Shown: positions 32,301 through 54,900 of the stretch, one piece after another
Layout: each line of letters opens with the position of its first letter
Numbering within the stretch: position 1 is the first letter of the stretch
Assembly: GCA_039621445.1 (NCBI GenBank)
Contig: CP154954.1
Coordinates: 40,169,572-40,233,571, forward strand
DNA from: Euglena gracilis
Lineage: Eukaryota
Length of the DNA: 64,000 nucleotides
Direction: 5' to 3'
Translations under genes and position numbers: made by a program
The notes under the pieces: generated by a model
Database searches by the model: none
Told to the model about the DNA's origin: nothing
What the model saw: only the letters and a program-made list of their open reading frames with translations

Positions 32301-32399
32301 ATTTTCAGCGTTATTGAAGGAGTAGGGTTTGGTGTGCAAATGGCCATGGCCATTTTGCGCAACATGGCCATTTGCACACCTAACCCTGCTCCTTCAATA

Positions 32400-32537
32400 C
32401 CATGCCCCCCCCCCCCCAATAAGACCCCCCCTCAGGAGCCAAAATCCCAGGGGGGGTTTTATATGGGGGGGTCGGTCCCGGCCAAAGGGCCGGCCTTCGG
32501 CCGGCCAGAAGGGGGTCTTATATGGGAGGGGGCATGG
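32400..32537. mobile_element. TA-TSD MITE (CCATGCCC..GGGCATGG)
   Basis: ta|ccatgcccc ... ggggcatgg|ta. Relatives near 13860 and 15750-15850. Confidence 0.8.
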
Positions 32538-35024
32538 TAACTCCAAAAAATCCGACTCAGAAAAATTTCGGCGGCAGCCGTTTAACGAAGGAGACCCAAA
32601 ACCCCTCATCCACCACCACCCAGGCCTCAATTCGGGCTGTTTTCTATGCAAATGATGGTGTCAAGTTATGCCACGTTGGGTGAAGTGTTTGAATGTGAAC
32701 TTAGTCGGCCCAGAGCCTCCTCACAGGGGGGGGGGGCTGTTGCCCCCTCCACCCTCCACCTCAAACAACACATATTCCCGTCCCCGGGACCCTTTATGGC
32801 CCACTGGGAACAGTGCGGGGAGATCAGCTCGGGGGGGGGGGGGGACCTGGTGCCCCCGAGCTTTTCCCATGCCCGGACCTTGGGCACCCCAAAAGGTCAT
32901 TTTTGGCAACTTTTTTTTGGATGTTCGCAAAAAATGGTCAATTTTTAAGCACATTTTCCAAAAAGTGATTTTGAAAATGTCCCAAAAACGTCGATTTTTA
33001 ATCACTTTTTTTGGGAAGTCCTCATAAAAAGTGCTATGACAGTGAGCTATTCCCGTTGTGGGAACAGCTCGGGGGGGGGGGCAATGGCGACCAATCAGGG
33101 GGGGGCGGTGAGGCCAAATTGCCAAATTGGCCGTTTTCACATTTTCCTCCAAATTGGCATTCTGACCCAGGAAAATTTTTCTACTCCCAAATTTTGCCAT
33201 TTTGGTCAAAAATGATGCCAGATTGTCCCCAGATTGGCCATGGGAGGTTGGTACGCCATGGCGAGGGGTCCGAATAGGGGGTCTGAATAAGAAGAGCGTA
33301 CATGGTTTAGGTGGGGGGGTGTCCCCCCACCCCCCCCCCTCCTGGCCCGCAGGGGGGGTCCGGACCACCCCCCCCCCCCACCTGCCAGGGGGTCCGGACC
33401 GACCCTCGGGGGGGTTCCCGGGACCCCCCCCAAAAGGGTCAATTTTCTCCTCCGGCGATTTGTGCCGAAAATTTTTTGCATTTTTGGCACATTTTTGCCC
33501 AAAAAGTGCCCAAAATGGCACTTTTGGTCGTTTTGGGGGGGTCAAAAATTTTCGGCCCGGCGCTCTGCGCCGGGCCGAAATTCAGTCACCCGGACCGCCA
33601 CTGTTTAGGTGGGGGGTGTCCCCCCACCCCCCCCCCCCCTCCTGGCGAGGGGGTCGGCGACCAGGGGGGGAGGGGTGTACCATGGTTTTCCAACAAAATT
33701 TTTGTTCAAAAATTCGCGAAAACCGCCGGTGGCGTGGTGAGGGGGTCCGGCCAGGGGGGGGGAGGGGGGGTAAATGGCGTGGCGAGGCCCTCGGAGAGGG
33801 GGGGGGAGGGGTGTACCAACCCCCCCCATGTGGGCCGAGGCTGCCCAAGGAACCAATCTGCCCCCAATTATTGTCCGTGAGGGCAAAAAAGGGCAATTGC
33901 TGTTCCGAGTGTTATGAAATGGCAGAAAATGGCATCGAAACGGACCAAAAAATGACTGAAAATAGGTCATTTTTTGCGTCAAAAGTTCAAGTGTTGGCCA
34001 CATCAATGCAGTGCCATCAAATTCCTCTCTCCTTCAAGGTTCTAAAGGCCAGACTTTTGCACAGTCGGGAACCCACCCCACGGGGTCGGTTTTTGGGGGG
34101 TGCCTGCCCACAGCAAGCACCCCCCTCCGACCCCAGTGCCAAAGGCCATTTTCAACGTAAATTTTGTGGGTCTCCTGGACCCCCACCCCCCAGGGGGGTG
34201 TGCCTGCTGGGGCAGGCAACCTGTGGCACCCCCCCCCCGCCCGGTTGGTACCCCCCCCCACAATTGACACCCCCCCATAATTAACACCCATAATTAACAC
34301 CCCCCCCCCGACCGAAAATTTTTTCAGCCGCTCGCGTCTTCACGGACCAAGGGGTTTGTCAGGAGTCCCTTGTATTTTGCCTTGTCCGTTCGGACCCCCC
34401 CCCCCATAATTGACACCCCCCCCATAATTGACACTACCTGGGGGGTTTGGAGGGTGTCGGGGGGTGTCAATTATGGGGAGGGGGTGGTAAGCAAAAGCCT
34501 GGTGGAGGCTGCATTTTTGGCAAAATTCGGAACTACTTGGCCATTTCACCCAATTTGGGTCATTTCATGGTCATCTTGAAAGGCCCTTGGGGAGTTTCCC
34601 CTTCCTCGTCTCTGTCACAGCTGCCGGTACAGTGGCACAGTCCCCCCCAGCGCCCCAGTACCCCAGTGCCTGGCGATCACCTGGTGACCGCCAAGCCACA
34701 CAATTGCTCCTGGGGTGGATCCCACACTGCAAAGACCTCTGCCAGGGAAAATATCCATGATGTGAGTAATCAATAATCAACCACCAAGGGATTTGGGCAC
34801 ACTTTTTTTGGTGATAAAACCTGGTGTATTTCCACACATTTCTCACCAGGATGCCGTTTTGACCATTTTAAAGAGTTTCTGTCACTTTTGGAGCAATTAT
34901 GTGCTGGCAGCAAGCCCTCCTCCCTCCACCCCCTCCAAAATTCACCCTCCTCCCCACCGCTCGATTCGCCCCTCTCCCCACCAAACTACCCCTTCGACGC
35001 CCCCCCCTCCCCCTCCTCGTGGAC

Positions 35025-35450
35025 TCTCTCCCCCTTCGATTCGCCCCTCTCCCCCTTCGAACCGCCCCTCTCCCCCTTCGATTCGCCCTTCTCCCCGCCC
35101 CTCTCCCCCTTCGATTCGCCCTTCTCCCCGCCCCTCTCCCCCTTCGATTCGCCCCTCTCCCCCTTCGATTCGCCCCTCTCCCCCTTCGATTCGCCCCTCT
35201 CCCCCTTCGATTCGCCCTTCTCCCCGCCCCTCTCCCCCTTCAATTCGCCCTTCTCCCCGCCCCTCTCCCCCTTCGATTCGCCCCTCTCCCCCTTCGATTC
35301 GCCCCTCTCCCCCTTCGATTCGCCCTTCTCCCCGCCCCTCTCCCCCTTCGATTCGCCCCTCTCCCCCTTCGATTCGCCCCTCTCCCCCTTCGATTCGCCC
35401 CTCTCCCCCTTCGATTCGCCCCTCTCCCCCTTCGATTCGCCCTTCTCCCC
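35025..35450 (+). repeat. 21/33-bp pyrimidine-rich minisatellite (tcgattcgcccctctccccct)
   Basis: Directly visible. Unit lengths are multiples of 3. Confidence 0.9.
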
Positions 35451-36919
35451 AGTCCCACCCAGGGCTGCCTCAATAATGCCACAAAACCACTTATCTTTTT
35501 GCAAATGAGCCAGAAATCAACCATGTGACGCACATGTTTGTTGTCATCATGGTTCCCCCTAACCATTCATTTGTGGCAGCCAAAACCATGCCCACCGAAG
35601 GTTTCCTGCTGTCTCTTTTTTTTTAACCAAAAGAGCTGCTGATTTCAGGGGTCCCAGGCTCTGTCAAATTGGAGAGGGGGTCATTCTTGGAAAGCAACAC
35701 TAGCATGAAAGATGAAGCAGCCTTATCCACGTCCCACGGCTGGCCCCGCGGGCCCCCCTGCTGGCCCTCCCGGCCCCACCAGCCCCACAGCGGCCCCTGC
35801 TGGCCCTCCCAGCCCTGTGGCCAGCCCCGCAGCGCCTGTTAACCCTCCTGGCCACAACATTGCTTAAGGTTTCTAACCCCCCCAGGGGGGCAGTGCTGAT
35901 TTTTTCGGAGTGACTGATTGATTATTGGCTCCAGGAAAGCTCTTAGGAAGTGGGTGACTGGTTTTCAAAAAGTGACTGTCTGGTTTTTTTTGGAAGTGGA
36001 AAAGTGCTCCCATCCCCTCCGGGGTTGGTAAGCAATGGATGCTCCTGACCCCGCAGCCAGCCCCGCAGCCCCTGTTGACCCTCCCGGCCCCACCAGCCCC
36101 CCCGGCCCGGCCCGGCCGGCCCGGCCCGCCCCCGCGGGGCCCGGCCTGCTCCCGGCCCGCCTGGTCCCGGCCCCCGAAGCCGGCCGGTCCCGGCCCCCCC
36201 GCGGCCGGCCGGCCCCCGCAGCGGCCGGCCGAAGGCCCCCGCCCGGCGGCCCCCGGCAGCAGCCGGCCGGCCCTCCCGCCAGGCCGTCCGGCCCGGCCCT
36301 CCGGCCGCAGAAAGCCTGGCCTCCCCCCCGCAGCGGCGGCCCTCCGGCCCCCAGCCCGGCCGGTCCCTCCCGCAGCCCGGCCCCTCCCGGCCCCCCAGCC
36401 CGGCCGGCCCTCCCGGCCCGCAGCGCTGGCCCTCCCGCCAGCCGGCCGGCCCTCCCGGCCCCCCCAGCCCGGCCGGCCCCGGCCCCCGCAGCCCGGAAGG
36501 CCCTCCCGGCCCCGCAGCCCCCGGCCTCCCGGCCCCCCCCCCCAGCCCGGCGGCCCTCCCGGCCCCCGCAGCCCGGCCAGCCCTCCGGCCCCCAGCCCGG
36601 CCGGCCCTCCGGCCCCCCAGCCCGCCTGGCCCTCCCGGCCCCCCCCAGCCCGGCCGGCCCTCCCGGCCCCCGCAGCCCCCCAGCCAGCCCTCCTGGCCCC
36701 TGAGCACCTGGACAAGCCGGAACCAGAACCTCCTGCTGAGCCGGAGGCCCAGCCCCTTGCTGAGGTCAAGCCAGAGCCCCTCAAAAAGGCCGAGCCAGAG
36801 CACCTCGACGAGACCCAACCTGAGCCAGAGTCCCTCCATGAGCAGGAGCCAGAGTCTCTTGCTGAGCTGGAGCTCCAGGTCCTTGACGAGGCCAAGCCAC
36901 AGCCTCTCGGTGAGGCCAA

Positions 36920-37252
36920 GCCAAAGCCCCTCGACAGGCCTCAGCCAGAGCCCCTCAGCGAGCCCCAGCCAGAGCCCCTCGACAAGCCTGAGCCAGAGCC
37001 CCTCGACAAACCCCAGCCAGAGCCCCTTGACGAGCCCCAGCCAGAGCCCCTCGACAGGCCTCAGCCAGAGCCCCTCAACAAGCCTGAGCCAGAGCCCCTC
37101 GACAAACCCCTGCCAGAGCCCCTTGACGAGCCCCAGCCAGAGCCCCTCGACAAGCCCGAGCCAGAGCCCCTCGACAAACCCCTGGCAGAGCCCCTTGACG
37201 AGCCCCAGCCAGAGCCCCTCGACGAGCCCGAGCCAGAGCCCCTCAGCGAGCC
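36920..37252 (+). repeat. 24-bp tandem repeat (agccccagccagagcccctcgacr)
   Basis: Directly visible. Variants are mostly CpG transitions. Confidence 0.9.
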
Positions 37253-38635
37253 TCGAATGGCCTTCCACACCCCCCGCTACTTTTCCACTTCCACTGCCCC
37301 CTCCTGAGGCTGCTTTAAGCGGTTACTGAACAAGCATTGAATTTTTTGAAAACAACTGAATCTTTCGCACTTCAGACTGTATAAACCCCCCGGGGTCAGT
37401 AGGATCCGGTTTGGTTGGTCGGCCGAAGGGGGGGGTTAGTAGGTGGGGGGGGGGGGTTTATAAGTCCCGGAATTGTTGGTGAAAATCCGAACCCCAAAAA
37501 TGACCCCGAAACCCCCCCAAAATGGCAATTTTTGGCAAATTTGGTCAAAAATGGCATTTTTGATGATGGTCGATCTCAAAAAAAGGGCCAAAAATCAGTT
37601 TTTGGGTGGTTTGAGGCCAAAAAAATCGGCCCCGGCGGCTTTCATTTTCCTTCCCCGAAGGGGGGGGGTTTATAAGTCCCGGTTTGGTTGGTCGGCCCGA
37701 GGGGGGGGGTTAGTAAGTGGGGGGGGGTTATTTTTGCATTTCCGCCACCAACTTGTTTGCATTTCATCTCATTTTATCTCACTTTATCCCCAAAATATTT
37801 GCCTCCTTCGGATAATTTTGCATTCGGCTGCACAGTTGCCCTTTGAAACTTCAACCGGCATGGATATTTTTCCATCATCCATGTATTAGTATTTTGTGTA
37901 TAGTATGTGTATAGTATGTGTATCATGTGTATAGTATTTTTTTTCATAGAGCGAAAGTAAAATGACAGCACAGCAGTGGGGTGGTTGGGGACGGGGGGGG
38001 GGACCAGAGGTTTTTTTAGTTCCGGGGGGGGGGGGGGGGTGGTTGGGTCCGGCCGAGCCCCCCTCCCCCCCCTGGGGGGCCAGAGGGGGTGGGATGTGCT
38101 TTTCAGCGCCAAAAGAGCTGATGCTATTTTTTTTGGCATTTTTCTGATTTTTTGGCCTTTTCAGGAGGGGAAAAGTGTCCCCCCCCCCCGGCCTTAAAAA
38201 AATCCCTGGGGGATGGGGGGTGTACGAGGCCCCCAAATACATATGCACAATTTTTTTTAGATTTTTGACCAAAAAATGTTTGGTTTTTTGCCCCTTTTTT
38301 GGGCTGAGTGGCCAAAGCGACCGACAACCCTTCCCTGGGTAGGAAGGGTGACTGGTTTTTTGAGAAGAGATTGACTGGTTTTTTGAACGTGGAGAATGCC
38401 CCCCCCCCCCAGGGTCGGCAAGCAATGGTGTGGTCCAGACCCCCCCCCCCGAGTCTCAAAGCCTCTGATTCCAAGCAGCTTTATCCCCGTCCGTTTCCAG
38501 CCCCGCAACGCCACCCCGGTCCACCCCAGCCTGCAGCTCACCGCCGCCCCCACAGCCCCAGCGGAACGCCTCCAGCACCACCGCCCAGCCCCACAGCCTC
38601 CGCGCCCCACCCTCTGCAGCTGGGCAGCGCGGGCC

Positions 38636-41600
38636 ATGGCCACCGTTGCTGCCGCCGTCATCCTCCTCCTCGCCCGCCGGGTTTGCCTCCTGTGTCGCGC
38701 TTTTGCGTTTGCAATCTGTTTTGTGCTCTTCGTTTTTAATTCAAAGCAGTCTGAACCCCCTGGTTTCTGTTTTTTTTGGGGGGTGACCCTATTGGCCAGA
38801 TCACTGCCGAGGGCCGAAGGGGGTCCGGGGGCCCCCCTGGAACCAATTTTTTTTCTTCCCCGGCACTTTGCGCCGGCAAATTTCTGTTTTTATCCTTTTG
38901 TGGGAAAAAATTGCCTGAAAACAGAATTTCTTTTTTTGAAGCCCCTCAAAGAAATTTCTGACCCTTCTCGCTGGTTTTTTCACCCAAGGGGGTAGGGGGG
39001 TGTTGAGCCCCTCCCGCCTCCCCTTCCCCCTCTCATTTAATTTCCTCCTGGGGTCATTGGTTTCCCCCCCCAATGTTCTTCTAAATTCACTGGAAAATTT
39101 TTCGATCATGAAAGCTTCTTTCTTTGCCCCCGATTTCCCCCCAAGGCCAAAAATATTGTATGTATGATTTTTGACCATTTTTTGTATTTTTTTTGATTAG
39201 AATTTATTATATTCCCCTGGGGGGGCGCCTGGCTGGGGGGGGGGCAGTCCCAGGTTCCCCATGTTGCTTTCTCACTCGGTGTGCTGTTTCAATGAGTCCC
39301 CTAACCAGGGTTTTTTTTAAGTTTGGACCCCCGGGGGGGGGGAGGGGGAGGGGTAGGGCAGGGTTCGATATAAGGAGGGCGTACATGGTTTAGGTGGGGG
39401 GGGTGTCCCCCCCACCCCCCCCCCCTCCTGGCCCGCAGGGGGGGGTCCGGACCACCCCCCCCCCACCTGCAAGGGGGGTCCGGACCGACCCTCGGGGGCA
39501 AAAATTGACCCCCCCCCAAAAAGGGTCAATTTTTTCCTCCGGCGCTTCGCGCCGAAAATTTTTGGCATTTTTGGCACATTTTTGCCCAAAAAGTGCCCAA
39601 AATGGCACTTTTGGTCGTTTTGGGGGGTCAAAATTTTTCGGCCCGGCGCTTCGCGCCGGGCCGAAAATTCGGCCACCCTGACCGCGCACCTGTTTAGGTG
39701 GGGGGGGTGTCCCCCCCACCCCCCCCCCCTCCTGGCCCGCAGGGGGGGTCCGGACCACCCCCCCCCCCCCTGTCCTTATATCGAACCCTGGGGTAGGGTG
39801 GGTGGGTCCGCCGGACCCCCCCCCCGGGGGGGTCCCCCCGGAGGGGGGTGGGATATACTTTTCGGCGCCGCAGGCGCCAAAAATGCTATTTTTAGCACTT
39901 TTCGCGATTTTTCGGCCATTCTTTGTGGGTCCCCCGGGACCCCCTCCCCCCTGGGGGGGGGGGGCCCGGGCCCCCCCTGGGGGGTGGGTGGGTGGGGGGG
40001 ACCCCCCCCGGTCTTAAAAAAACCCCTGCCCCTAACCCAAAAACTGCTCGACATTGTTTTCCAGCATTCCCCTCCCCCAAATAACCTCGTGGGGTGCCAG
40101 GTTATTGGAACCAACTTTTGGCCCTGCCCCTTGCCAGGTTATTTGGGCCCTTTTTTCAGTATTGCAAAGGAACTTTGCCTTAAAAAGGATTAAGTTACTG
40201 GAACCATTTTTTTGCCCCTCCCCCCACCAAGTTATTCGGCCACTGCCAGGAGGAAGCCCTGCCAGGTTATTTGGGTGGGCTTATGCAAGCCCCCCCCCCC
40301 CCCCCGGGGGGGTCCCAGGGGACCCACTCAATTTCCCCGAAAATGGCCAAAAATCTCGAAAATGCAAAGAAATAGCATTTTTTTTAAAAAATTGGCACCA
40401 GAAAAACATGTCCCCCTGGGGGGGGGGGCTCGGCCGGGCTCACCGCCCCCCCCCCCCGTAAATGTGGCGTGTTTGCCGCATTTATGCTTTGTTCGTTTCT
40501 TTCCGTAGACCCCGCCGCCCACCAACGTCGTCACCGCCGAGCAGCTCCGGCAAGCGGACGACGACGCGGCGCAGCAGGAGCGGGTCCGGCAAACAGACCC
40601 CATTGAGTTTGGTTTTCTTTGCTTTTGCCCCCCCCCAGGTCCTCCAGAAATGGATGAAGGGATTTCAGAAGTCTGGAAAGTGGAGAGAATATGCTTAAAA
40701 AAACATTTATTCATTTGGCCTGAGGGGCCAGGGCAGGGTTTGATATAAGGAGGGCGTACATGGTTTAGGTGGGGGGGGTGTCCCCCCACCCCCCCCCCCT
40801 CCTGGCCCGCAGGGGGGGGTCCAGACCCCCCCCCACCTGCCAGGGGAGGTTCCCGGGACCCCCCCAAAAAGGGTCAATTTTTTCCTCCGGCGCTTTGCGC
40901 CGAAAATTTTTTGCATTTTTGGCACATTTTTGCCCAAAAAGTGCCCAAAATGGCACTTTTGGTCGTTTTGGAGGGGTCAAAAATTTTCGGCCCGGCGCAA
41001 AGCGCCGGGCCGAAATTAAGTAACCCAGACCGCGCACCTGTTTAGGTGAGGGGGGGTGTCCCCCCCCACTCCCCCCCCTCCTGGCCCACAGGGGGGGGGG
41101 TCCGGACCACCCCCCCCACCTGTCCTTATATCGAACCCTGGGCCAGGGTGTTTGCAAGGGGACAGGGTAAGTGGGCAAAGAAACTCAGGGGGGAGGATGA
41201 GCAAATTTTTCTGGTTTCAGAACAAATCAAATGGTCCAAATTGAAATGAAAATGGGGTTTGAAGGAGATTTTTCTTTGATGGAAATTTGAGCCCCAAACC
41301 CCTGATTTGTTTCAGAAAGCGTATAAAATGATGAAAAGGGGGTTTGAATATTTTCAATGGGATTTTGTTTTACCCCCTCTAAGATTTCCAGGGAGAAATG
41401 GGAAGCCCTTCGGTTGTTGTTGAGGTGGTGTGGTAGGGGGGGGGTCCTGACCCAGACCCCCCAAAGGTCAAAATTTTCCCCATTTCTGTGGGTTTCTTTG
41501 GGCAATTTTTTTTTGCATTTTTGACACGTCTTGCCCAAAAAGTGCCCAAAGTTCCTCTTTTGGCCAATTTCTGGGGGAGGGGCAACATTTTCAGCCTGGC

Positions 41601-44600
41601 GCTTTGTGCCCCCCCCATCTGCCCCCCCTCCCCCCCCCCCCACCTGTCCGTATGTCAAACCCCAGCCCCAGCCCCCTTCGCTCCAGTGGGGTCTGGGGGC
41701 ACCGCCAGCTGCACCCTGCCCCGACCTGGATCGAGCGGCTCTTCAACCCCGTCATCGCCCCCTACCGCGGCATCCGCCAGCTCCTCGAGCAGGCTGGGCG
41801 TTGTTTGATTTGACACAATTTTGGGTTTCGAAGAAAGGGTCGAAGACGATGAACAATGGTGAGCGTGAGTGGTTTCATATGGTGAGGGTTTTTCCCCCTG
41901 GGTGCCTTCCAAATCCGTGGGAGCTTCATGGGACACTTCCGCTGCTGTCCCTGTTTGAGACCCTCTTTGAGAAAGAAAAGCTCTTCATCGCAGCTTTCCA
42001 CCAATGCTCAGCCTGCCGGCGAGTACTGGTGGATCGTGGAGACGGCGGAGGAGGCCACCGCGAAGCGCCTCCAGGCGCTGCACGCGGTGGCCGACCCCGC
42101 CCTCTGCGCCCGCTGCCACCCACGCGTTTATTTGCTTTGTTCAATGAAATCCAACTATCCAACTAATGGGTTGGGTGTGCATCACCGTTGCCGAGGCCCC
42201 CCCCCCCTCTGGATTGGATCTCCACCCCAACCCAAGCCCATTCATCCCCCCCAGCCTGTGTTGCACACCACTCCAAGGTTTGGGTTCTTTTGACCTGGGA
42301 AGACCCCCGAGCCCTGCAGCTATGGGATTTTTCTGGGTTGGGGCCCAGGGGCCCTTGGTCCATACCCATTTTTTTAAAAGGTTTTTTTAATTTGAAACAT
42401 GTTGTGAAAAGTATTGGAGGCTTCATTCACACAGGAAATTATGAAATGAAGCTTGACACTGGGCGCGTCTGAAGTCTTGAAATGTGAAAAAGCGGAAATA
42501 TAAAAAATTAAGTGCGTGGCCACACCACCACCGCTTCGGGTTGAAGGACACGGACGTGAATGGCACCATGGTGCCATTGTGCCCATGGTGCGTATATGCA
42601 CCGGTGTGTTTGTCACCCCCTGTTTTGTCGTACCTTTCAATGTTTCAATGGGGTGGGGTTGGTGCATGGGGAGGGTGGATGTGCCCCTCACCATGGGGGG
42701 GGGTGGCCATGAGTTGCCAGAAATGACGTGTGCTTGCTCCCTTGCTTTTGCAAAGTGCCGGAAAAATTTATAGGCTTTCGTATTTACCCCCCCCCCCAAG
42801 GTGCCCCATGGTGCCCACCCTGGAAGTGAGTGGATGCTGACCAGGAATTTTTTAAGTTTGGGGCGGGGGGGGGGTGAGTCTGCTGCCCCCTCCCCCCGAA
42901 AATTGCCGAGGATTTTTGATCCCCAAGGGGACCCCTCCAGGCCTCCTTTTAAGTCAGAAGAGACCGGACCCAGGTGTGAGTTTCGGTGAGAAACACCAAA
43001 ATTCTTTCAAAAAATGCCCTTCAATGCCCCGATTTGGGGGGGGGGGCTCCAGGGATGGATGGGAAGCCCTTCGGTATTGAGGTAGGTGGTAGGGGGGGGG
43101 TGCCCGACCACCCCCCCCCCCCCCCCCTAGATGTTGGGAGGGGGGTCCGGACCCCCCACCCCCCCTCCTTGACAGGTGCCAAAAATAGCAGAAATTTTTC
43201 TTCCGGCGCTGCGCGCCGGAAAATGAGCAAAAACACCCCTTTTTGCTGACTTTTGGCCATATTGCCCTTTTTTTGATGTGTTGGTGTTTCCCCCCAAAAA
43301 ATTGTTCAAAAAATTTCAAGAAACGAGCATTTTTGTGTCGATTTTCAAAGAAAAATCAGGGATTCTTGACCGATTTCGACCCGATTTTCCGGCCCTTTGC
43401 CCGTCCATAAAATCGAAAAATTTTCGGCCCCCCCTCAGTTTCGAGGTAGGAGGGGGGGGCCGACCCTCCCCCCCCCTCCGTGTCGGGAGGGGGAGGTCCG
43501 ACCCACCCCCCTCCCCCCTCAAGGCTTCCCTGGGGATCCCTGGAGGGCTCGCCAGGTTTGGTGCGTGGAGGGGGAGCCATGAGAAGAAGCCCGGACCCTC
43601 CCCCGGTCTCCTGAAAAGGGCGCAGTGCAATAATCACCGGTTGTGGGTAAAAATTCTGACACGTTGAGGCAAATATTTTGCCAGGCGTGGAAAAAATTTT
43701 GGGAGCCAGGTGTAATGTTTTTGCAAGTTTCATTCATCTGGTGTCCAATTTACACGTAATTCAAAATCCTTTTTCCAATTCTGTTGGCGTCCCCAAAAAT
43801 TCTCACTTGAACCTTGGTCATTCTTTGGGGTTTGGGGAAACATTCTTCTCCAGATGCACCTGCCAATGATGCTGATTTTAAAACGGTCAATCCCCTTGCC
43901 CTTCACAGTGGGCACCAGCTGTGGCCGCCCGCGAAGCCGCCCAGAACGCCGCCCGCCACTACAGGCGGCCGCCAACCCGTTCGGTGTGTGATGCCTCCTC
44001 AATATGCCCCCACCCCATGTGCCCCAAGTGGAAAGTGCCAATAGTTAGAAGCCAGCACCTTTCTTCCAGCTGAGAGTCGTGGTGGTGCGAACGCAAATTG
44101 GTGCCAAATGTTTTTCTGGTATTTATCATGTTTCCAGCTTGCCTGGTACTTCCCGTTTTTAAGACATGGATCGGAGAAAGCAGTTCTTTGCTTTGATGGT
44201 GAGTCAACAAAAAACGTATTGGCAGGAAATCCGTTGTTCGGGCGACATCCTGTCATTGAAGCTCCACTCAGGGGTTTTTTTTAGCCTTGCCCGGGGGGGG
44301 GGGGGCGTAGGGAGTGGGTCCCTTGGCCCCCCCCCCCCCGGGGGGGGGGGCGGTGGGTGCAGGGGCTGGTGGGTATATCTTTTTCGGTGCTGAAGGCACC
44401 AAATTTTTTGAAAAGGTGCCATTTTCAGCATTTTTGGCCATTTTCGGGCAAAGTGGGTGGGTTCCCCCGGGGGGGGGGGGCGGGCACCCCAGGGGGGGGG
44501 GGTGGATGCCGACCCCCTCCCCCCGGTCTTAAAAAAAACCCCTGGCTCCAATGTCGAATTTTCTGTTTGTTGCAAATTTTCTGCCATTTTCCCAATTTTT

Positions 44601-47600
44601 GCCTACTTGAACGCTTTTGTGAAAATCAGAAGGTGATTATGATGATTGTGACGACGACGACAATTATTATTATTATTATTGTTATTGTTATTATTATTGT
44701 TATCATCATTGTCATTATTCTCAAAAAATGAGGGAATTTTTTGTTGAAACCCGGAAAGGTTTGGAGCAGGCTTCTTTTAAGTGAACGCCTTTTTTTTGGC
44801 CCCCAAAATGCCCCCCCCCCCCTCCCCGGATTTCCTCCTCTCCCTTTTTGGGGGGGTGGGTGCAGGGCACCCCCTCCCTCTTTAAAAAAGAACTCTTCCC
44901 TTCTTTCCGGCATTATCCCAAAGTGCCTTGCATTCACCCCCCTCCCCGTCTCACAGTTCCGTGGCTGCCGGTGGTGGCTGGTCCCCCTCCTCACCGCCAT
45001 CGGCGCCGCCAGCTGGACACGCAGGGCGGCGCTGTGAAAATGGTTGGTTCGGGGGTGGCCAGGCTGATTTCTTTTCGGGAAAGCACCCCCCAAACTGGGC
45101 GATGAGGATTTTCTCCCAAAAGAACCCCCCCCCCCCAACCCTGGTCGGTGAACCCGTGGTGACCCCAAACGTATTTCTCAGTGCAAAGCGGCAAATCTTC
45201 TCTTTGGGGTTTGTCCTCCCTGACAGGTAGTTGCAGATTCCTGACAGACCCATTTTGGGGTTTTGGCCAGAAGCAGGGGTTTTTTTTTTAGTCTTGGACC
45301 CGGGGGGGGGGGTAGGTGGGTGTGCCCGGCGAACCCCCCCAGGGGGAAATTTTGAAAAGGTGCTATTTCAGCATTTTTGCAATTTTTGGCCATTTTTGGG
45401 GGGGAAAGTGAGTGGGAACCCCCCCCCCGGTCTTTTAAAAAACCCCCTGGCCAGAAGTGCCCACCAAGGAACGGCGCGCCCCTGCCGCAGATATCGCCCA
45501 TCGACAGCTGCCTGGCCAACACGTTGGCGTGGGCAGTGGTGGCCGGCACCTACGGCTGGCTGTGGGTGGACTACCTCCGCCCACGGCTGCTGTGGGTGCC
45601 CCGCCGCTACCCATGCTCCGCGATCGGGGGGCATTTTGCCCTGGGTGTAGTTGGTCAAACTGTCTCTGTCTCTGTCAAGGGAACATTCAATTTTTCAGAC
45701 CCAGATGAGAGTGGAAACGGAGGGGAAGTCCCAACGCTCAGTTCATTTTCTCACAGTTTCCGAGACTCTCAGCATCTGTTGAAATGGAAAAGGCCGCATC
45801 GCCCCCCCCCCCCTGACAAGGGGCCCCCCGCCGCTAGCCGCCGCCACCCTCGTCCACGCTACCGCTGCCCGCCTCCGCCCCCTCGTCGAAGGCAACGGCT
45901 ACGGTGGGCCACGCCCTGCCTCAGAATCCCCCACCCCCCCCTGGCAGGAAACGTGTTTTGATTTGCTTTTCATTTGACAGCATGGCCAGACTCTTTTTGA
46001 GGAAAGTCGCACTGCACCTCACCCCCCCTCAGGGTGGGTGCTGTGGGCAGGTTGGGGGGGGAGGGTATTTTTTTGATCCCAACCTGAGGGGGGTCAAGTT
46101 TTGGGGTGGGCAGTGCTACAGCCAGGCTTCTGCTTAAGGGGTTGCAGTACCCCCCCTGGGGGGGGGGTGGATTGCAGCTAGTCCAAATTTGGCTAGTGGG
46201 ATTTCTAGCAGGGCTAGCTGGTGGAATTTTTTGGGACCCCCAAAAATGGCCAAAAAAATGCCCGTTTTTGGCCATTTTTTTGGGAATTTTTGGAACGTCA
46301 GCCAAAAACCTATTAAAAACCTCATTTTCACCTTGGCACGCAGCGCTGGAGGAATTTTTTTTTCCCAGCTGGGGGGGACCTTTCAGACACCCTCCCCCCC
46401 GGGGGGGAGGGGGGATCTGGCTAGTCCATTTTCCCCAGGGTCTAGCCGATTGGCTGTCCTTAAGCAAAAGCCTGGCTACAGCACATCCGGTGCCGGGACA
46501 GGACCTGAAAATGGCCATTTGCAAGGGAAAATGGCTGGGTCGGAAGGCACCAGGGGCCGAGCCCCCCCCCCCCCCCCCGGTGCCTGCTGTGGGCAGGCAC
46601 CCCACAGCACAAGGCACCGCCCTTGGGGTTTGTAAAACGAAGCCTGAGCGTGGCCCCTTCCTCTCCTCCCCTCCCCCCCCCGGTGGTGAGACCAGGCGTG
46701 GCGGCACAACGCCGCCTACTACGGCGTGCGGGTGGCCCACCTCATCGCCATCGCGGCCGGCGGCCTGGGGGACCTGGGCCTACACGCCCTAGTCCTACAC
46801 CCAGGCTTCCTTTCTTACTTCCTTCTTTTCCTTCTTTTGCCCCTGCTTTGGGGGGGGCAGGGTGTGCCGTGACCCTCCCTCCTCCCAAAGTGTTCCCATG
46901 GTTTCCCACCCCGGGGCACATGGAAACGGGGGGGGGGTCCAGGGTGCGGCCACCTCTGCCTCCGGGGTGGGTGGAGCACTGCATGTAATTTTTGGGCAGG
47001 CTTTTTGGTGCCAGGGCAGCACTCCGCAAAAAACTTGGTTTGGCAAGGCGATGAACGAATGATTTTACTGGAAGTTCGGCGCTCCGGAAATACGACAAGG
47101 CTTGTGTGACTTGGCTTAAGGCTTGTAGACAATGCAATGCCCAGGATGGGGGTGAGGGTGGTGAGAGATCCCTTTCCACCTCCTGAAGGGTTTTGGGGGT
47201 TCTTTTCAGCCTTTCGAGGCACAAGGCACATGTGCAATTTCAAACAGGAAAAAGCCTGCTGTCAAGTCCCCGCCCCCTTCATCAACACCCGCAGCCCCCT
47301 CCAATGCTGGCGGGACCGACAACCGCCCCCACCGCCTGGCATGGTCGCCTGGTTTTTCGAAGCCCTCGGGCTCGGCAACCCCCCTGCCGTGCAGGCCGTT
47401 GCTTAACCCCCCACCCCTCAGCCCTTTCCTGCATTTCCCGGCAGAACAGCCAGGCCAACCCGCTGGGCTGGTTTCGAAGGAACTCAGGGTTTGTGTTCAG
47501 CTGAAGTTGGGGGGATGAGACACCCAGGCCACCCCATCCCTCCCATCAAAGGCAATGGCTTGCCGCTGCACCGCCTGCTGCACCGCTGGCGCAGCCTGGA

Positions 47601-48940
47601 GCGCCGCCGCCGGAGCCCGCTGCGCCGCCTGCCGATGCTGCAGCGCAGGAGCCAGTCAAGCCAGGGTTCAGTGCCCAGGGCTCGTGATTTCAGAGGTTTT
47701 TTTTAAATTTCGTGGTTCGGGTTGGGGGAGACGAACCTCCTCCCCGGGGCTGAGTGGGTGTCCCGCCAGGTTAGCTTTTGTTTTTGGTGCGAGTTTTTTT
47801 TGGACGCAAGATTGACCCCAAAAGTCGGTCCCTCCAAGCCCCCCCCCCCCCGGGCCCCCCAGGGAAAAGGTGTGGCCAACGAGGACCCTCATGGCAGGAA
47901 GTGAGCGTTAGATTTGAGCAGGGGGGTCTGGGTACCAAGGGTTTTTTTTAGCCTTGAACGCTGAACCCCCCCTCCCCCCTGGGGGGGTCCCCCCAGGGGG
48001 TGGTGGGGTACACTTTTCGACGCCAAAGGCGCCGGAAATTTTTGAACAAGGTGCTGTTTTTAGCATTTTCACGATTTTTGGTCATTCTTTGGGGAAATTG
48101 ATTGGTCCCCCGGGGGGGGGGGGGGTGAGGGGACCCCCCTGGCAGGGTTCGATATGAGGAGGGCGTACATGGTTTAGGTGGGGGGGTGTCCCCCCCGCCC
48201 CCCCCCCCTCCTGGCCCGCAGGGGGGGGGGTCCGGACCACCCCCCTCCCCACCTGCAAGGGGGGTCCGGACCGACCCCGGGGGGCAAAAATTGACCCCCC
48301 CCAAAAAGGGTCAATTTTTTCCTCTGGCGCTTTGCGCCGAAAATTTTTTGCATTTTTGGCACATTTTTGCCCAAAAAAGTGCCCAAAATGGCACTTTTGG
48401 TCGTTTTGGGGGGGGTCAAAAATTTTCGGCCACCCTGACCACGCACCTATTTAGGTGGGGGGGGGTGTCCCCCCCACCCCCCCCTCCTTGCCCCCCGGGG
48501 GGGGGTCCGGACCACCCCCCCACCTGTCCTTATATCGAACCCTGCCCCCTGGTCTTTAAAAAAAAACCCCTGCTGGGGACCCCTGAAACCCAGACTTCTT
48601 TTGGTCTCTTTTTGCCAATTTGCTGAGTAAATCTCCAAAATGCGATTTTGCAATGTGCACAAAAATGTCATAAGATGCATTAAATAAGAGGTTTGGGGGG
48701 GGGAAGAAACTCAAAAAAAAATGAAATTGTTTTTTTTTGGAGCAGTCTGTTGTGTTTTTTCCAGTTAAATTGATTGTTTGGTGGGGGTATGTCCTGAAAT
48801 CAGACGGGCGTGATTTCTTTGGGATGAAGGGCCCTTCTCAATGCCCCACCCCTGTACCGCAGAGCCCCAGTGCTGTGCCCTGCACACGACCAAACGCCCT
48901 GCGCCGGGCGTGGAGGAAGCTGAAGAGCAAGCTGCGGTGA
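38636..48940 (+). CDS. 14-exon gene for an unknown, probably membrane protein (371 aa from ATG 38636; may extend upstream)
   Basis: Exons 38636-38680, 40509-40590, 41701-41786, 42021-42117, 42524-42587, 42801-42825, 43909-43983, 44957-45018, 45490-45621, 45821-45906, 46706-46798, 47264-47388, 47568-47658, 48888-48940 join into one stop-free frame (1116 nt) with GC3-rich codons: MATVAAAVILLLARRTPPPTN...LCARCHHHRF...LCPWC...WWLVPLLTAIG...RRAWRKLKSKLR*. Confidence 0.8.
39306..40028. mobile_element. hAT-type MITE (CAGGG..CCCTG), TSD cccctaac, containing nested MITE 39359-39790 (TSD gggtaggg)
   Basis: Both 8-bp TSDs are perfect. Confidence 0.9.
40734..41140. mobile_element. hAT-type MITE CAGGGTT(C/T)GATATAAGG family, TSD ggccaggg
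   Basis: Perfect 8-bp TSD. Same family as 39359-39790 and 48143-48544. Confidence 0.9.
43050..43542. mobile_element. hAT-type MITE CAGGGATGGATGGGAAGCC family
   Basis: TSD gggggctc/gagggctc (7 of 8). Homologous to ~52103-52570 and 55508-56270. Confidence 0.85.
44269..44544. mobile_element. hAT-type MITE
   Basis: cagggg..cccctg. TSD gctccact/gctccaat. Confidence 0.85.
45274..45449. mobile_element. hAT-type MITE
   Basis: Perfect TSD gccagaag. Confidence 0.9.
46123..46474. mobile_element. hAT-type MITE (CAGGCTT..AAGCCTG)
   Basis: Perfect TSD gctacagc. Confidence 0.9.
48143..48544. mobile_element. hAT-type MITE nested in another MITE
   Basis: Perfect TSD ccccctgg. Confidence 0.9.
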
Positions 48941-50081
48941 ACAGAGGACATCGCCATCCATTGATGCCCAAGGATGGTAAATGGTGTCTGTGTGCATTGT
49001 TTGCGCATGTTCACACAACGTGAGATTGTGCCCCATCTTTGTTTGGCCAGGTCAATTTTTCAAAGTTTCATTTCAAACGGAGCAATCGCATTTTGGATGT
49101 TCAATGATTGGAAAGGGAAGGTTCAGGGTTGCCAATTGGGGGTGCTGAGAGGAGTTGGGGCAGGGAGGGGGGAGGCTTTAACTTGTTATCAGTCCCTCGC
49201 CACCTGCAGATTGATGCATCATCAATTTTCCCAAGTTGGAATTTTTAACTCAGTTTTCCCTCAGTCATTGCGTCATTCTTGTTTCGTGCCATTTTATCCG
49301 GATTATATGGTGTATGAACCAAGGTGTGCACATGCATGTGTTTGTATGACATATTATTGGGTCAATTTTATGCTTCTTTATTGCTTTTTCTTACGATCCT
49401 TGGCGCCAGCCAAAGCCCAAGCCCAAGCCCGGGGCTGGCGCCCGGTGCCCATGGGCCTGGGGCAGGGAATTCCTTGAGCTGACCCCCTCCGGTGGGGGGG
49501 GGGGACGCTCAAGGGATCCCCTGGAAGGAAGCAGACTGGGGTGTGCCATCCCTCTGGGGATGGCAAACCCACAGAGGGAGGGTTGGAAGCCCTGGCTGGG
49601 CATTCCTTGGAGGGTTGAGTTTTTTGTCTGGTATTTTTTTATTTTTTAACAATCGAGCCTTTTTTTGAGTTTGGTTTCAGAAGAAGAGAATTGGTTAGTT
49701 GCAAACAAAAAAAATGGCACCTTCAGCCCCCAATAGCGGCATTTGGTTTGAGATTTCCCAGCAAACGTTCTGGGTGAGAATTTGGGGTTGGCTCTTGAGG
49801 GAAGGCAGAGGAGAGGGTCTGGTTCCCCCCCCCGCTTTCTGCATCCACAACCGGAAGCAAACTCATCCCTCGTAAGATTGCCCAGCCAGCCCCCCCCCCT
49901 CCCCCCTCCCAGGCCAAAATGGAAATGGCCTGAACGTTTTGTTTTGGAGGGTTGCATGCAGCTTTCAAGGGTTTCAAGGGTCAAACCCCCCTTTTCCTCT
50001 ATTTTTGGCACAAATGGGTTTCAGCCTCCAAAAAATGACCCCCTACGGAATTAGTCCCTCACAAAGGTTTTTTCCCCCAAA

Positions 50082-50958
50082 CAAGGATGAGTCTTGGTCT
50101 TGTATTCTTGGGGGGGTACCAAGAGTGACCCAAGATTCTTGCCCCCCCACCCAAGACCCAAGATCTTGGGTGCAGGCAATGCGAATGTGAAGAAACAAGA
50201 TGCTCAACACCAAGTCTTGGCCCTTGCCATCACATGCATGGTGCTTCACAAGGATCAAGATTTGCGTCGTTTTGCTAGGATCTCATCTAGCAACGCCTCC
50301 TGTTTAGCACGATGCTTTTCACGCAAAGCAGAGTTGCGCTCAGGCTGTTTTTTTTTTACCAACCCCGGGGGGGAGGGGGGTCAGAAGTGCCTTTGAGTGC
50401 CTGCCCAGGCAGGCACTACCCCCCCGGGGGGGGTTGGGTTTCGGCCTGTGCCCAGGCACTTTCCTTGGAAAATCGGCCATTTTAGGCCATTTTTTTTTGC
50501 CTTCCGGCGCCTTCGGCGCCAGGGTGCCTTGCCAGGCACTTTTGGCCAAGTTTGTTGGAGTGCCTTGGGGTGCCTGCCCACTAAAAAACAGCCTGGTTGC
50601 GCTTGGTCCTTTCTTCGGCCAGCTTTGGACGCATGACAGAAACATAGTTCATGGCAAGCCAGAGCTGTGACTCGCAGTGCGAAGCGGTTAGGCGAGCCCG
50701 CAACTTTCCAAGCATCAATGTATGTGTTCCATCTGCGTGCGAAATGGTGTTGTGAAAAAAAAAATGCAAACCAATTTCAAATCACACCTTGTGACTCCGA
50801 CGCGTTTTAAAAGTTTAGGTTCACGACCTAGAGAAACCTTCTGTGACGAAAAAATTTTTCGGCCGGGGTCCCAAGACCCAAGAATCTTGTCATTCTTGGG
50901 TACCCCCCCAAGAAGCAAGATCTTGGGGGGGTAACCCAAGACCCAAGACTCATCCTTG
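50082..50958 (-). mobile_element. Deleted hAT-like element (CAAGGATGAGTCTTGG TIR) with a transposase C-terminal relic at 50255-50732
   Basis: 16-bp TIR, flanking repeat ccccaaa (7 bp match). Relic reads TLMLGKLRARLTASHCESQLWLAMN...ILAKRRKS*. Confidence 0.75.
50341..50595. mobile_element. hAT-type MITE inside the transposase relic
   Basis: Perfect TSD gttgcgct. Ends caggctg..cagcctg. Confidence 0.9.
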
Positions 50959-51907
50959 CCCCAAAGGATGGCGGCAGGTGGGGGGGCATGGACGGATCGG
51001 GGGGGGGGCAAATCTGCACCCCTGGAAGGTCTACCCAAAGTGCCGATTTTTGGGACATTTTTTTGAGCCCCCCCCCAAATTTGACCGCGACAAGAGGAAC
51101 CCTTTGAGCCATTGGTGGCCACCCCCAAGGAATGGGTGGGTTGGTGCCGACCTCCCTAATCCTCGTGTTTCCCATTCTGGCCTGGCCGTGCCTCAGGCTG
51201 ACTGTGATGCAATGGCACCCCTCGCCCCGAGAGGGAGGGGTCAAGGCCCATCCCAGCAAAGGAAGCAAATCAAACCCAGATTCGAAGACTTTTCACTGCC
51301 TGGAAAAAAAGCACTGGGGACCCCCCCCTTTGTGCCAAAATTTTGGCATTTTTGGCAAAATTTCCCCCCAAGTGCCCAAAAATGACATTCTGGCCACTTT
51401 GGTGGGGGTGGGCAACGTTTTCCGTCTGGTGCTTTGCGCTGGACCAGAAATGGATCACCTGGACCCTGGCTTCTTTTCAAGTCAGCAGAAACTAGTGTAT
51501 GGGTTTCAGCGCGAAGGGAAATGGCCTCAAACAGCCCGATTTTATTGGGGGGAGGGGTCCCCCCCCTGCACCAGGCTGGGTTGGGGGACCCCCCAGGGCC
51601 TTAAAAAGAAGCCTGACCCTGGCGTTGTTTAGGGGGGGGGGGGCTGGACCGGAGGAGAGCCCAACCGATATGAGTTGGGGTGCATCGCATCACAGCCAAC
51701 CAGCCCCGCACGGGAGACCCCCATCCCTCACCCACTGACCACCCCCCCACCACCCCCACCCCCACCACCAGGGCCATGGGCACCAAGTGGTGCTGGCCCC
51801 TGGCGCACCTGCTGGCCAGCCCGGGTGATGGGAGCTGCCACGCCCTCGCCCTCCGCCCCCGCCGCTGCCACCACCGCCATCGCCACCCCGTGGCAACCAT
51901 CCGTTGG

Positions 51908-54900
51908 TCAGCGCCCCTGCTCCAACGACGCCTCCGACTGCCACCACCGACGCCCCCCGTCAGCGTCCCCGGTCCCACTGAGGCCTTTTTTTGCTCATAC
52001 AAAGGCTGTACAGTTTTGGGAGAGGGAGGTTGTTAAGGTTGGAATCTGGGGGTTTCTTTAGTCTTGGACCCCCGGGTGGGGGGGGGGGAGGGTGGGGGGT
52101 CCAGGGATGGATGGGAAGCCCTTCAGTATTGAGGTAGGTGGTGGGGGGGGTCCCTCCCTAGGGGGGTGAGGTGGTCGGGGGGGGGGGGTCCGGACCCCCC
52201 TTAGACGTTGGGAGGAGGGTTCAAAAAAATTCAAAACTGAGCATTTTTGGATCGATTTTCAAAGAAAAATCAGGGATTTTTGACCGATTTTGACCCAATT
52301 TCCAGCCCTTTGCCCGTGCATGAAATCGAAAAATCTTTGTCCCCCCTCAGTTTCGAGGTAGGGGAGGGTCCGACCCCCCCCCCCCCCCCCCGTGTCGGGA
52401 GGGGTCCGACCCCCCCTCCCCCCTCCCTCAAGGCTTCCAACATTTTTTTTGGGGGAAAACCACCAACACATCAAAAAATGGGAAATATGTCCAAAAGTCA
52501 GCAAAAGGGGTGTTATTGCTCTTTTCCGGCGCTGTGCGCCGGAAGAAAATTTTCTGCTATTTTTGGCACCTGTCGAGGAGGGGGGGTCCGGCCAAGTCCC
52601 CACCCGGGGTCCCCCCAGCGGGGAGTGGGGTATATTTTTCGGCGCCGAAGACATCAAAAATTTTGAAAAGGTGCTATTTTTAACATTTTTCGCGATTTTT
52701 TGGCCATTTTGGGGGGAAATTTAGTGGGTCACCCGGGACCTCTCCCTCCCCCAGGGGGTGGGTGGGTGAGGGGACCCCCCTGGTCTTAAAAAAAAAACCC
52801 TGGTTGGAAACCTACCAGGAGTGAAGGGACCACATGCAAAGTTTTTTTGTTTTGTCTCTGGCAAAAATGGGCAAAGGGGGCCAAAGTGTGGCCAACCGTT
52901 GCCAAAAGTGGCAAAAGCGACCAAACGTGGCAAAAAGCGGTCAAAAATGCCTAAAAATTCCGAAAAGTGTCCCAAAAATGTCCAAAAATGGCCAAAAGTT
53001 GCCAACCGTAGTCAAGAAATAGCATAAATGGCCAAAAACAGCCCAAAAATGGCCATATACCCCCATCTATGGTAAATTTTCCTCTGACTTGGGGTCCACC
53101 CCGCTTGTCTAACGACCACCATCACCCCCTGGTCGGAGATGAACATTGGCCATTTAGCGACCCCCCCCCCCCGTCAGAGACGAACATCAGTGGTCGTTGG
53201 ACAAGAGGGGGGGGAGTAGGGGGACCTTCTCCTGCCCTTGTATCCAGTGGCCCGTTTCCTCAAAAAAATTTTCATTTTATTTTCTTTTCCCTTTTGGCAA
53301 GGACTCAGCCGGCCACGGGCACCCCGGGGCTGCCCCCCCCCTCGGGGGTGTGCCCCCCCCCCGGTAAAAAAAAGCCTGCTACCTGCTGACCTGACCTCCT
53401 GTACTCGCTGATTTGTCTGGAGACAGTTTCCAGGGGGAGAGGAATTCTGTGCTTGCACTGGAAACTGGCCTGCCTGTGAGTCAGCCCACAACACCAACCC
53501 CTCAACCCCCGAAGCCCCCGGCCACCCTGGGCCCACCCCCGCACCTCCGGCTCAACCCCCGAAGCCCCCGGCCACCCTGGGCCCAACCCCGCACCTCCGG
53601 CTCAACCCCTGAAGCCCCCGGCCACCCTGCCACATCCCCTCCCCCGTGTCGGATGACCTCGCTTGGCCTCGGTTCGCCCTGGCCGAGCGAGGGTTCCCGG
53701 CGCGGAACGGGGGTGCTGTGCACAGCCACCTGAACCCCACCGCCTGAACCACCGACCCCCGCAGCATTGGGCTCACCCCCCGCAGCTCTGGCTCAACCCC
53801 CGAAGCCCCCCGCCGCCTGGGGCCCAGCCCCCCACCTCCGGCTCAACCCCCGAAGCCCCCGGCCACCCTGGGCCCACCCCCCCGCACCTCCGGCTCAACC
53901 GCCGAAGCCCCCGGCCACCCTGCCACATCCCCTCCCCCGTGTCGGATGACCTCGCTTGGCCTCGGTTCGCCCTGGCCGAGCGAGGGTTCCCGGCGCGGAA
54001 CGGGGGTGCTGTGCACAGCCACCTGAACCCCACCGCCTGAACCACCGACCCCCGCAGCATTGGGCTCACCCCCGCAGCTCTGGCTCAACCCCCGAAGCCC
54101 CCGGCCACCCTGGGCCCACCCCCGCACCTCCGGCTCAACCCCCGAAGCCCCCGGCCACCCTGGGCCCAACCCCGCATCTCCGTCTCAACCCCCGAAGCCC
54201 CCGGCCACCCTGGGCCCACCCCCGCACCTCCGCCTCAACCCCCGAAGCCCCCGGCCACCCTGGGCCCACCCCCCCGCACCTCCGGCTCAACCCCCGAAGC
54301 CCCCGGCCACCCTGCCACATCCCCTCCCCCGTGTCGGATGACCTCGCTTGGCCTCGGTTCGCCCTGGCCGAGCGAGGGTTCCCGGCGCGGAACGGGGGTG
54401 CTGTGCACAGCCACCTGAACCCCACCGCCTGAACCACCGACCTGCCTGTGAGTCAGCCCACAACACCACCACACCAACGCTGCCGCCGATCCAGCAGCGT
54501 GTGGCCCTCAGCCCCCGGCAGCCGCCTGGCAGCTTCCTGGCAACGTTGTGACATTGTGATGCCGGGAGAATTGTCCTCTGTCTGCCCTCTGTACCTGCCC
54601 ATTAATCTGTCTTCATGGGGACCTGTCTCCCACCCTTGTTCATGCTGACCTGTCTGTTTGTTTTTTTTTGTTCAAAAAGCCGGTTAAAAAATTCTGAACA
54701 TTTTCTCCAGGCTTCCAGCCACAAATTTGTGGAAAAATGCTTTTCGGTTTTTTTTGTCCCCGGTGGCCGATAATGTCAACTTTTCCCCCTCCGACCCTGA
54801 CCCGCCCGGGAAATTGTCCCAGCTGTTTATGTGCCAGAGCAGGGGGTTGGTTATTGGGATTTTGTCCCCACCCCTCCCCCCTGAAATGGTCTCCCGGGAA

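Follow-up and report, generated by a model that had tools for sequence, protein, structure and literature searches.

The window analysed here, a stretch of 64,000 nucleotides (nt) from Euglena gracilis (assembly GCA_039621445.1, contig CP154954.1, forward-strand positions 40,169,572 to 40,233,571), contains a gene that runs from an ATG at position 38636 to a stop codon ending at 48940, is divided into at least 13 exons and encodes an orphan protein with hydrophobic stretches. Taking the best explanation as a whole, nine of the sequences that interrupt this gene are, with high confidence, introns of the nonconventional (NC) kind in a nuclear gene of a euglenid, each bounded by a terminal helix set three letters inside the 5' end and five letters inside the 3' end. 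The same window holds twelve short elements resembling MITEs (miniature inverted-repeat transposable elements); the sum of the two intron spacers (3+5) equals the length of their 8-bp target-site duplications (TSDs), so that the cut published for this class of introns would remove an element together with one copy of its TSD and restore the uninterrupted sequence. Introns of this kind may have arisen from short DNA transposons that had CAGG...CCTG as inverted ends and made 8-bp TSDs, an origin that we hold to be mildly favoured.

The positions and end letters that a preceding sequence-only reading had given for the nine introns proved correct when positions 40000-49500 were read, and the terminal stem that it had placed at +4/-6 is present in 9/9. 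All of them lie on the forward strand. Written with a slash at the 3' junction and with the first exon base in lower case, intron 1 (40591-41700) has the borders AAA-CAG...CTG-GGGGC/a, intron 2 (41787-42020) GAG-CAG...CTG-CCGGC/g, intron 4 (45019-45489) ACG-CAG...CTG-CCGCA/g, intron 7 (46799-47263) ACC-CAG...CTG-CTGTC/a and intron 9 (47659-48887) AGC-CAG...CTG-CACAC/g. A CAC/GTG variant is found in intron 3 (42118-42523; ACC-CAC...GTG-GCCAC/a) and in intron 6 (45907-46705; GGC-CAC...GTG-GCGGC/a), and a CGG/CTG variant in intron 5 (45622-45820; GAT-CGG...CTG-ACAAG/g). Intron 8 (47389-47567; GTG-CAG...TTG-CCGCT/g) has a G.U at the third pair, and its 3' end may lie at 47568, with a 3' spacer of six letters. 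The 5' layout is thus always three free letters followed by the helix partner CAG (6), CAC (2) or CGG (1), and the 3' layout the partner CTG (6), GTG (2) or TTG (1), with five free letters after it. In 9/9 cases both the downstream exon and the intron itself open with a purine. None of the nine has a GT/GC-AG border pair; single canonical ends, a GT at 47389 and an AG at 45820, are present in one intron each, as had been reported.

The uninterrupted helix runs, counting Watson-Crick and G.U pairs, measure 12, 14, 10, 5, 7, 6, 7, 13 and 6 in introns 1 to 9, and 13, 14, 12, 12, 8, 11, 10, 13 and 12 of the first 14 positions are paired. This corresponds to a mean of 11.67 pairs over the 14 positions from +4/-6 for ends belonging to the same intron, against 7.71 for mismatched combinations of 5' and 3' ends (n=72), and at least 11 pairs are formed by 7/9 own end pairs and by 1/72 mismatched ones. 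The three GT-AG introns of the same gene show a helix run of 0 at this offset. The helices are specific to the individual introns and are no effect of composition. In 6/9 introns the helix can be extended outwards by one or two pairs (to +3:-5), so that +4/-6 marks the start of the conserved motif and not always the start of pairing. When introns 2 and 8 were folded with short flanks, the terminal helix appeared in both the minimum free energy and the centroid structures; the energy of the whole-intron fold is ordinary (z -1.5 and -1.0, respectively) and the terminal helix alone stands out.

According to the proposed mechanism, the ends of the intron would pair in the pre-mRNA through a helix that opens with CAG (+4 to +6) against CTG (-8 to -6), and a putative machinery would then cut, on the 5' side, 3 nt upstream of the helix and, on the 3' side, 5 or sometimes 6 nt downstream of it, before a purine, after which the exons would be joined. 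At this locus the cutting rule is suggested by sequence, reading frames and a few contig ends; the proof by knock-in comes from others (PMC12501133). CAG/CTG at +4 to +6 and -8 to -6, together with Y/R letters at the two junctions and direct repeats as a frequent feature, were described in NC introns by Milanowski and co-workers (PMC3935182, PMC4770533), and a CCAGG and CCTG consensus was obtained from 16,151 NC introns of E. gracilis by Gao et al. (PMC11170887). The NC code 5'-N3-CDG...CH'G-N5-6/R was defined by Nomura et al. through knock-in mutagenesis, with a 5' spacer of 3 nt and a 3' spacer of 5 nt, 6 being tolerated and 4 poor (PMC12501133). Since this code is already published, the fixed 3+5 offset noticed in the window is a rediscovery and the intron class a known one. 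Release of NC introns in circular form has also been reported (cited in PMC11282704 and PMC12501133).

The strict form of the code, N3-CDG...CH'G-N5/R, fits 6/9 of the introns (five with CAG/CTG and one with CGG/CTG), the exceptions being the two with CAC/GTG and the one with CAG/TTG; in Euglena agilis the strict code is found in 61.2% of NC introns (PMC12501133). The nine share with euglenid NC introns the non-GT-AG borders, the CAG/CTG pair or a variant of it with its helix, the predicted spacers of 3 and 5 nt, the purine that follows and the Y/R junction letters. They are likewise interspersed with GT-AG introns in one gene, where they make up 9/12 of the introns, compared with 71.8% genome-wide in E. 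agilis (PMC12501133). Nothing essential sets them apart, the differences being the 3/9 that depart from the strict trinucleotides and the 3' spacers of introns 8 and 9, which may be of 6 and 4 nt.

Joining the exons after removal of the nine introns by the 3+5 rule, together with two GT-AG introns, gives a single frame that stays open for 1046 nt up to the TGA at 48938-48940, with three stops in each of the other frames. About 5.5 stops would be expected by chance over 348 codons, by our own base-composition estimate, and none occurs in the model frame. The claim that one rule keeps 14 exons in frame stands as regards the open frame; as for the number of exons, 13 could be rebuilt. All are on the forward strand. 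The first coding exon (38485-38680) holds the ATG at 38636, is followed by a GT-AG intron (38681-40508) and is in frame with the exon at 40509; upstream of 38485 one contig has 94 more letters, a hint of an extra exon or a spliced leader. The G+C content at third codon positions (GC3) is a sharp marker of the frame, with values of 0.90-1.00 in the exons 40509-40590 (0.96), 41701-41786, 42021-42117 (1.00), 44957-45018 (0.95), 45490-45621 (0.91) and 46706-46798 (0.90), and the high-GC3 frame is passed from exon to exon across the junctions of introns 1-7; exon 45821-45906 lies in this series between introns 5 and 6. For exon 42524-42570 the end at 42570 (GT at 42571) is likelier than 42587, by frame and GC3 alone. 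Exon 43909-43983 lies between the GT-AG introns 42571-43908 and 43984-44956, whose 3' ends (43880-43908 and 44930-44956) carry cytidine-rich pyrimidine tracts, as described for the conventional introns of E. gracilis (PMC11170887). The remaining exons are 47264-47388, 47568-47658 and the last coding exon, 48888-48940.

Support for the junctions was sought by aligning three contig sets (X1, X2 and X4) and one raw RNA run (X11) to positions 31000-50999; the joint table was dominated by repeats, and the ends of the pieces listed in it were used. Among these, an X2 piece covers 38485-38679 with extra letters on both sides. Another X2 piece starts at 41698, that is, at the exon start 41701 minus three letters common to exon 1 and intron 1, and an X1 piece ends at 41789, the exon end 41786 plus three shared letters. 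A third X2 start, at 42523, equals the exon start 42524 minus one shared letter. Letters 12-143 of an X4 contig (214 letters) fall on exactly 45490-45621, and the contig continues on both sides, with 11 letters upstream. One X2 piece stops at 46796, before the modelled exon end 46798 by 2 nt, and pieces of both X2 and X4 start at 48887, one letter before the modelled exon start 48888. Five junction ends are thus matched exactly or within shared letters and two within 1-2 nt, which gives partial cDNA support for seven junction ends among the pieces listed.

Several observations speak against the model of the introns and their gene. A full cDNA was not obtained. The contigs identical to the window (0 mismatches) are unspliced, one of them (42416-42585) crossing one junction and another (47528-47785) crossing two, and the contigs that look spliced (41639-41789, 45490-45621 and 48887-48965) differ from the window at 2-5 positions, so that they probably come from a close paralogue or an allele, which may be the expressed copy. 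In addition, the codon bias of exon 47568-47658 favours the +1 frame (GC3 of 0.97, compared with 0.60 in the model frame), which would imply offsets of 3+6 for intron 8 and 3+4 for intron 9. If exon 11 is placed at 47569-47658 and exon 12 begins at 48887, every exon is read in its best frame and the two shifts cancel; because of this conflict in GC3 and of the cancelling shifts, the open frame cannot decide where introns 8 and 9 are joined. The GC3 figures of exon 47568-47658 would also be explained if it were Ala/Pro-rich. The best-GC3 frame also differs between the two halves of exon 47264-47388. The frame switch in 47264-47388 and 47568-47658, taken with the contig starts at 48887, may reflect 3' spacers of 6 and 4 nt, a homopolymer error of the assembly or a decaying gene copy. 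The putative expressed copy carries two changes (41691 and 41692) in the 3' helix arm of intron 1.

These points, the frame conflicts at exons 47264-47388 and 47568-47658 among them, are what could be expected if the gene model were an artefact, either a decaying paralogue or a by-product frame of GC-rich DNA with some junctions wrong. The lack of homologues would agree with it as well: no relatives came up when exon 45491-45619 was used in a word search of longer proteins, and a full HMMER scan gave a single weak repeat-like match, P0001 (E=2e-4), which was left unused. Against an artefact stand the high GC3 (0.90-1.00) that the six exons named above show in their linked frames, the seven contig piece ends within 0-3 nt of predicted junctions and the absence of all of the stops expected by chance, and we regard it as highly improbable.

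Turning to the transposons, the window was scanned for CAG...CTG ends that agree as inverted repeats in at least 11/14 letters, lie 60-2500 nt apart and are flanked by 8-mers identical in at least 7/8 positions. This yielded 10 elements, nine of them with flanks of 8/8. Over the 199 CAG..CTG inverted-end pairs flank identity is bimodal, with nine pairs at 8/8, one at 7/8 and the remainder at 6 or below. Shifting the compared flanks outwards by 8 nt left one hit and by 3 nt none, and 20 local shuffles gave 0-1 hits each. A scan without fixed end letters added the element at 55508-56270 and otherwise returned mostly tandem arrays and palindromes, and one further element (47936-48572) was spotted by eye and then checked. 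The resulting set comprises 12 elements of 176-763 nt with inverted ends of the CAG type (at least 10/14 letters) and 8-bp TSDs, 10 of them perfect and 2 at 7/8; the ends read CAGG...CCTG in inverted repeats of about 16-18 nt that abut the identical 8-mers.

Eight of the 12 elements are placed within introns of this gene, five of these in four NC introns (1, 4, 6 and 9), and two pairs are nested. The element at 39306-40028 has CAGGG.../...CCCTG ends and an 8/8 TSD (CCCCTAAC), and it encloses a second one at 39359-39790 with its own 8/8 TSD (GGGTAGGG). Intron 1 contains the element 40734-41140 (GGCCAGGG, 8/8), intron 4 the element 45274-45449 (GCCAGAAG, 8/8) and intron 6 the element 46123-46474 (GCTACAGC, 8/8), and a further one (44269-44544, TSD 7/8) sits in a GT-AG intron. 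In intron 9 the element 47936-48572, with a CAA head and a 7/8 TSD, itself contains the element 48143-48544 (CCCCCTGG, 8/8). The others are found at 50341-50595 (GTTGCGCT, 8/8), at 55508-56270, where CAC/CAG heads are flanked by GTTGACAC (8/8), at 56759-57027 (GTGCCAAA, 8/8) and at 61639-61918, with 16-nt perfect inverted ends and the TSD ATGGTGTG (8/8). A repeat search showed copies of dispersed elements in introns 1, 4, 6 and 9; when the intron bodies were set against the window, nothing but the nested elements recurred, the sequences of introns 2, 3, 5, 7 and 8 being unique. No further copies turned up in metagenome scans made with an element end and with an element core (0 matches in both). 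Suitable transposons are present in the window and, from their sequence, appear young. Perfect 8-bp flanking repeats also border two candidates at 18240-18660 and 55546-56024, whose inverted ends, of 10 and about 17 nt, are CAT-headed; these may belong to another family whose duplications have the same length.

With its flanks, an element mimics the layout of an NC intron, that is, three letters, CAG, helix, CTG and five letters. Nine of the 12 elements taken with their flanks agree with the full published splice code, including the purine that follows, and a purine occupies TSD position 6, the prospective first base of the exon, in 10/12. All 18 ends of the NC introns share their first five letters with element ends (motif CA-G/C-G/A-S). 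The best identity to element ends averages 7.56/14 for the intron ends, compared with 5.43 for 2061 other CAG 17-mers, and 0/20,000 resamples reached so high a value. An insertion of such an element into an exon would be precisely erased from the mRNA, since the 3+5 cut removes the element and one duplication. The earlier proposal that old transposon insertions are a source of introns gains from the elements of the window with their 8-bp TSDs, and loses its claim to an age series of decayed TSDs; the window supports a transposon reading better than the evidence first offered for it, and the reading may be called plausible.

The same agreement could have arisen in the opposite direction, if NC splicing came first and transposons that satisfied it then spread in a gene-dense, transcribed genome, in which case the match would be silent on the origin of most NC introns. 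The 9/12 elements that follow the code and the 10/12 with a purine at TSD position 6 could reflect the survival of spliceable insertions, and the presence of 8/12 elements within introns of one gene fits this too. Elements already lying in introns, however, need no spliceability, yet they keep the pattern, and the common Y/R letters at NC junctions (PMC4770533) are most simply taken as two copies of one target. We consider this direction of cause unlikely.

Descent from transposons has to be weighed against three findings that count in the other direction. When the control 17-mers are required to carry CAGGS as well, the excess of the intron ends becomes marginal (5.70 vs 4.83 of 12, P=0.067). 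Intact elements were sought in recognisable exons of the window and none was found, the flanking GC3 being 0.4-0.7, so that none has been caught acting as an intron. Finally, no TSD signal is demonstrable in the nine introns, a comparison of low power at n=9 that is given in detail below.

The marginal similarity past CAGGS would suit an origin of NC introns by double-strand-break repair or some other process than transposition, with the repeats as microhomology and the likeness to the elements limited to a motif of five letters. Break repair was proposed by the authors who described a recently gained NC intron in the gapC gene of E. agilis, flanked by eight-nucleotide direct repeats (PMC4770533), and repeat copies of introns 2, 3, 5, 7 and 8 are absent from the window. 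Such an origin appears quite improbable, given that the offsets add up to 8, as long as the TSD of the elements that share the terminal motif, and that in the single documented young intron the repeat is exactly eight nucleotides long.

The superfamily of the elements can be approached through their ends. Members of the hAT superfamily have the end consensus YARNG, the target pattern nTnnnnAn and 8-bp TSDs. About two thirds of the element ends read CAGGG and the rest (about 4/12) CAGGC, which departs from YARNG. The hAT target pattern was not seen in this small sample, T occupying position 2 in 3/10 TSDs and A position 7 in 3-4/10. None of 10 open reading frames (ORFs) tested, chosen among the longer ones of the window, showed a Pfam family that would indicate a transposase. 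Membership in hAT, judged from TSD length and terminal letters only, is our best guess. The elements resemble hAT-superfamily MITEs in their 8-bp TSDs, their short terminal inverted repeats (TIRs) and their 5' CAG start, and differ from them in that no transposase is linked here, the target pattern was unseen and a third of the ends read CAGGC. Merlin elements with 8-bp TSDs have been reported in E. gracilis, and that report describes a terminal 5'-GG and TSDs of 8-9 bp (PMC8101967); the TSD length agrees with that of the window elements and the ends differ, 5'-GG in Merlin versus 5'-CA here.

In the sequence-only reading the nine introns had been taken as an age series of old hAT insertions, in which the stem persists while the TSD, of 8 bp, decays to remnants; on this view selection would maintain the stem. 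The counts of flanking 8-mers on which it drew are as it had given them, with one pair at 5/8, three at 4/8 and five at 1-3/8, and they do not rise above chance. As a control that keeps the position-specific composition, the left 8-mer of one intron was paired with the right 8-mer of another in 72 pairings. The nine introns' own flanks agree in 25/72 letters, or 2.78/8, compared with 3.03/8 in the control (permutation p=0.77), and 35% of the control pairs (n=72) score at least 4/8. Without the two junction positions the values are 1.67 and 2.00 (p=0.87). Runs of at least 4 shared letters across the junction occur in 3/9 introns and in 9.7% of controls (P=0.056). The pair ctgccgtg/ccgctgca does differ by transitions alone, as had been pointed out; overall there is no excess of transitions, which make up 0.34 of the introns' own mismatches and 0.36 of those in controls. 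Identity, shared runs and transitions are all at control level, and the TSD-like remnants, with the age series built on them, cannot be upheld in these nine introns.

An age series of hAT insertions would still draw on the intact CAGG-ended elements with 8-bp TSDs in the window, and on the match of CAGGG to the consensus YARNG. Across the nine introns the uninterrupted helix length also rises with flank identity (rho 0.97, permutation p 0.0002), a correlation selected after the fact from six pairings of stem and flank measures and absent when only Watson-Crick pairs are counted (rho 0.28). The young E. agilis intron with its 8-nt repeat (PMC4770533) would fit as well. On the other side stand the flank identity below that of the control, the lack of a transition excess, the lack of a hAT transposase or Pfam domain in the 10 longer ORFs tested, the pattern nTnnnnAn at about 3/10 TSDs per key position and the roughly 4/12 ends with CAGGC. 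Taken together they make this age series rather doubtful.

In print the origin of NC introns has been termed unclear, and their descent from MITEs is put forward as an explicit hypothesis (PMC3935182, PMC11282704, PMC12501133); the earliest of these papers, from 2014, points out that euglenids had at that time yielded no identified transposable element (PMC3935182). As in the sequence-only reading, the inverted ends are there taken as TIRs and the junction repeats as TSD-like (PMC3935182, PMC11282704); what differs here is the presence of concrete copies with CAGG...CCTG ends and exact 8-bp TSDs, and the explicit equality of 3+5 with the TSD length. A literature search, with supplements and figures outside its reach, found no paper with CAGG-ended, 8-bp-TSD elements in Euglena, with the equality of 3+5 and the TSD or with a link between hAT and NC introns. 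A parallel is offered by the introner elements known from Micromonas and other algae and by Fritillaria with its noncanonical introns (PMC11282704), as there too a transposon insertion turns into an intron and part of the excised sequence comes from the TSD. These introns differ in that the spliceosome acts there on co-opted GT/AG-like signals, whereas the cut here would be measured from a helix.

The rest of the window holds features of other kinds. Very GC-rich open frames extend over 34777-37326, with tandem units of 21 nt and 24 nt (27 and 14-16 copies) that are SPLSPFDSPF-like and Pro/Ala/Gly-rich; they have no Pfam match and are probably a separate repeat-protein gene upstream. Other tandem arrays are found at 12219-13798, 14836-15400 and 53500-55400, the last with a PPKPPATLGPPPHLRLNP-like unit in an exon-like frame. 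An inverted repeat at 7999-8656, with arms of about 37/40 matching letters, spans a stretch of 658 nt; its apparent 8-bp duplication is palindromic and therefore belongs to the inverted repeat and is no TSD. Rfam and tRNA scans of the whole window gave no matches.

By themselves the nine introns are routine, the splice code of their class having been genetically defined in 2025. It is the element copies, together with a spacer sum equal to the TSD length, that turn the MITE hypothesis into a prediction that can be counted genome-wide, namely a spike of 8/8 flank identity in young NC introns, membership in CAGG-ended families and an autonomous partner that would name the transposase superfamily. 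The 3+5 spacing may be the RNA-level mirror of a family of CAGG-ended transposons with 8-bp TSDs that is still young in the genome, the machinery excising the element and one duplication, a proposal on which we are evenly divided. If true, this mirror would explain why NC introns are the majority, why common Y/R letters stand at both junctions, as two copies of the target, and why a newly gained intron carries a repeat of 8 nt.

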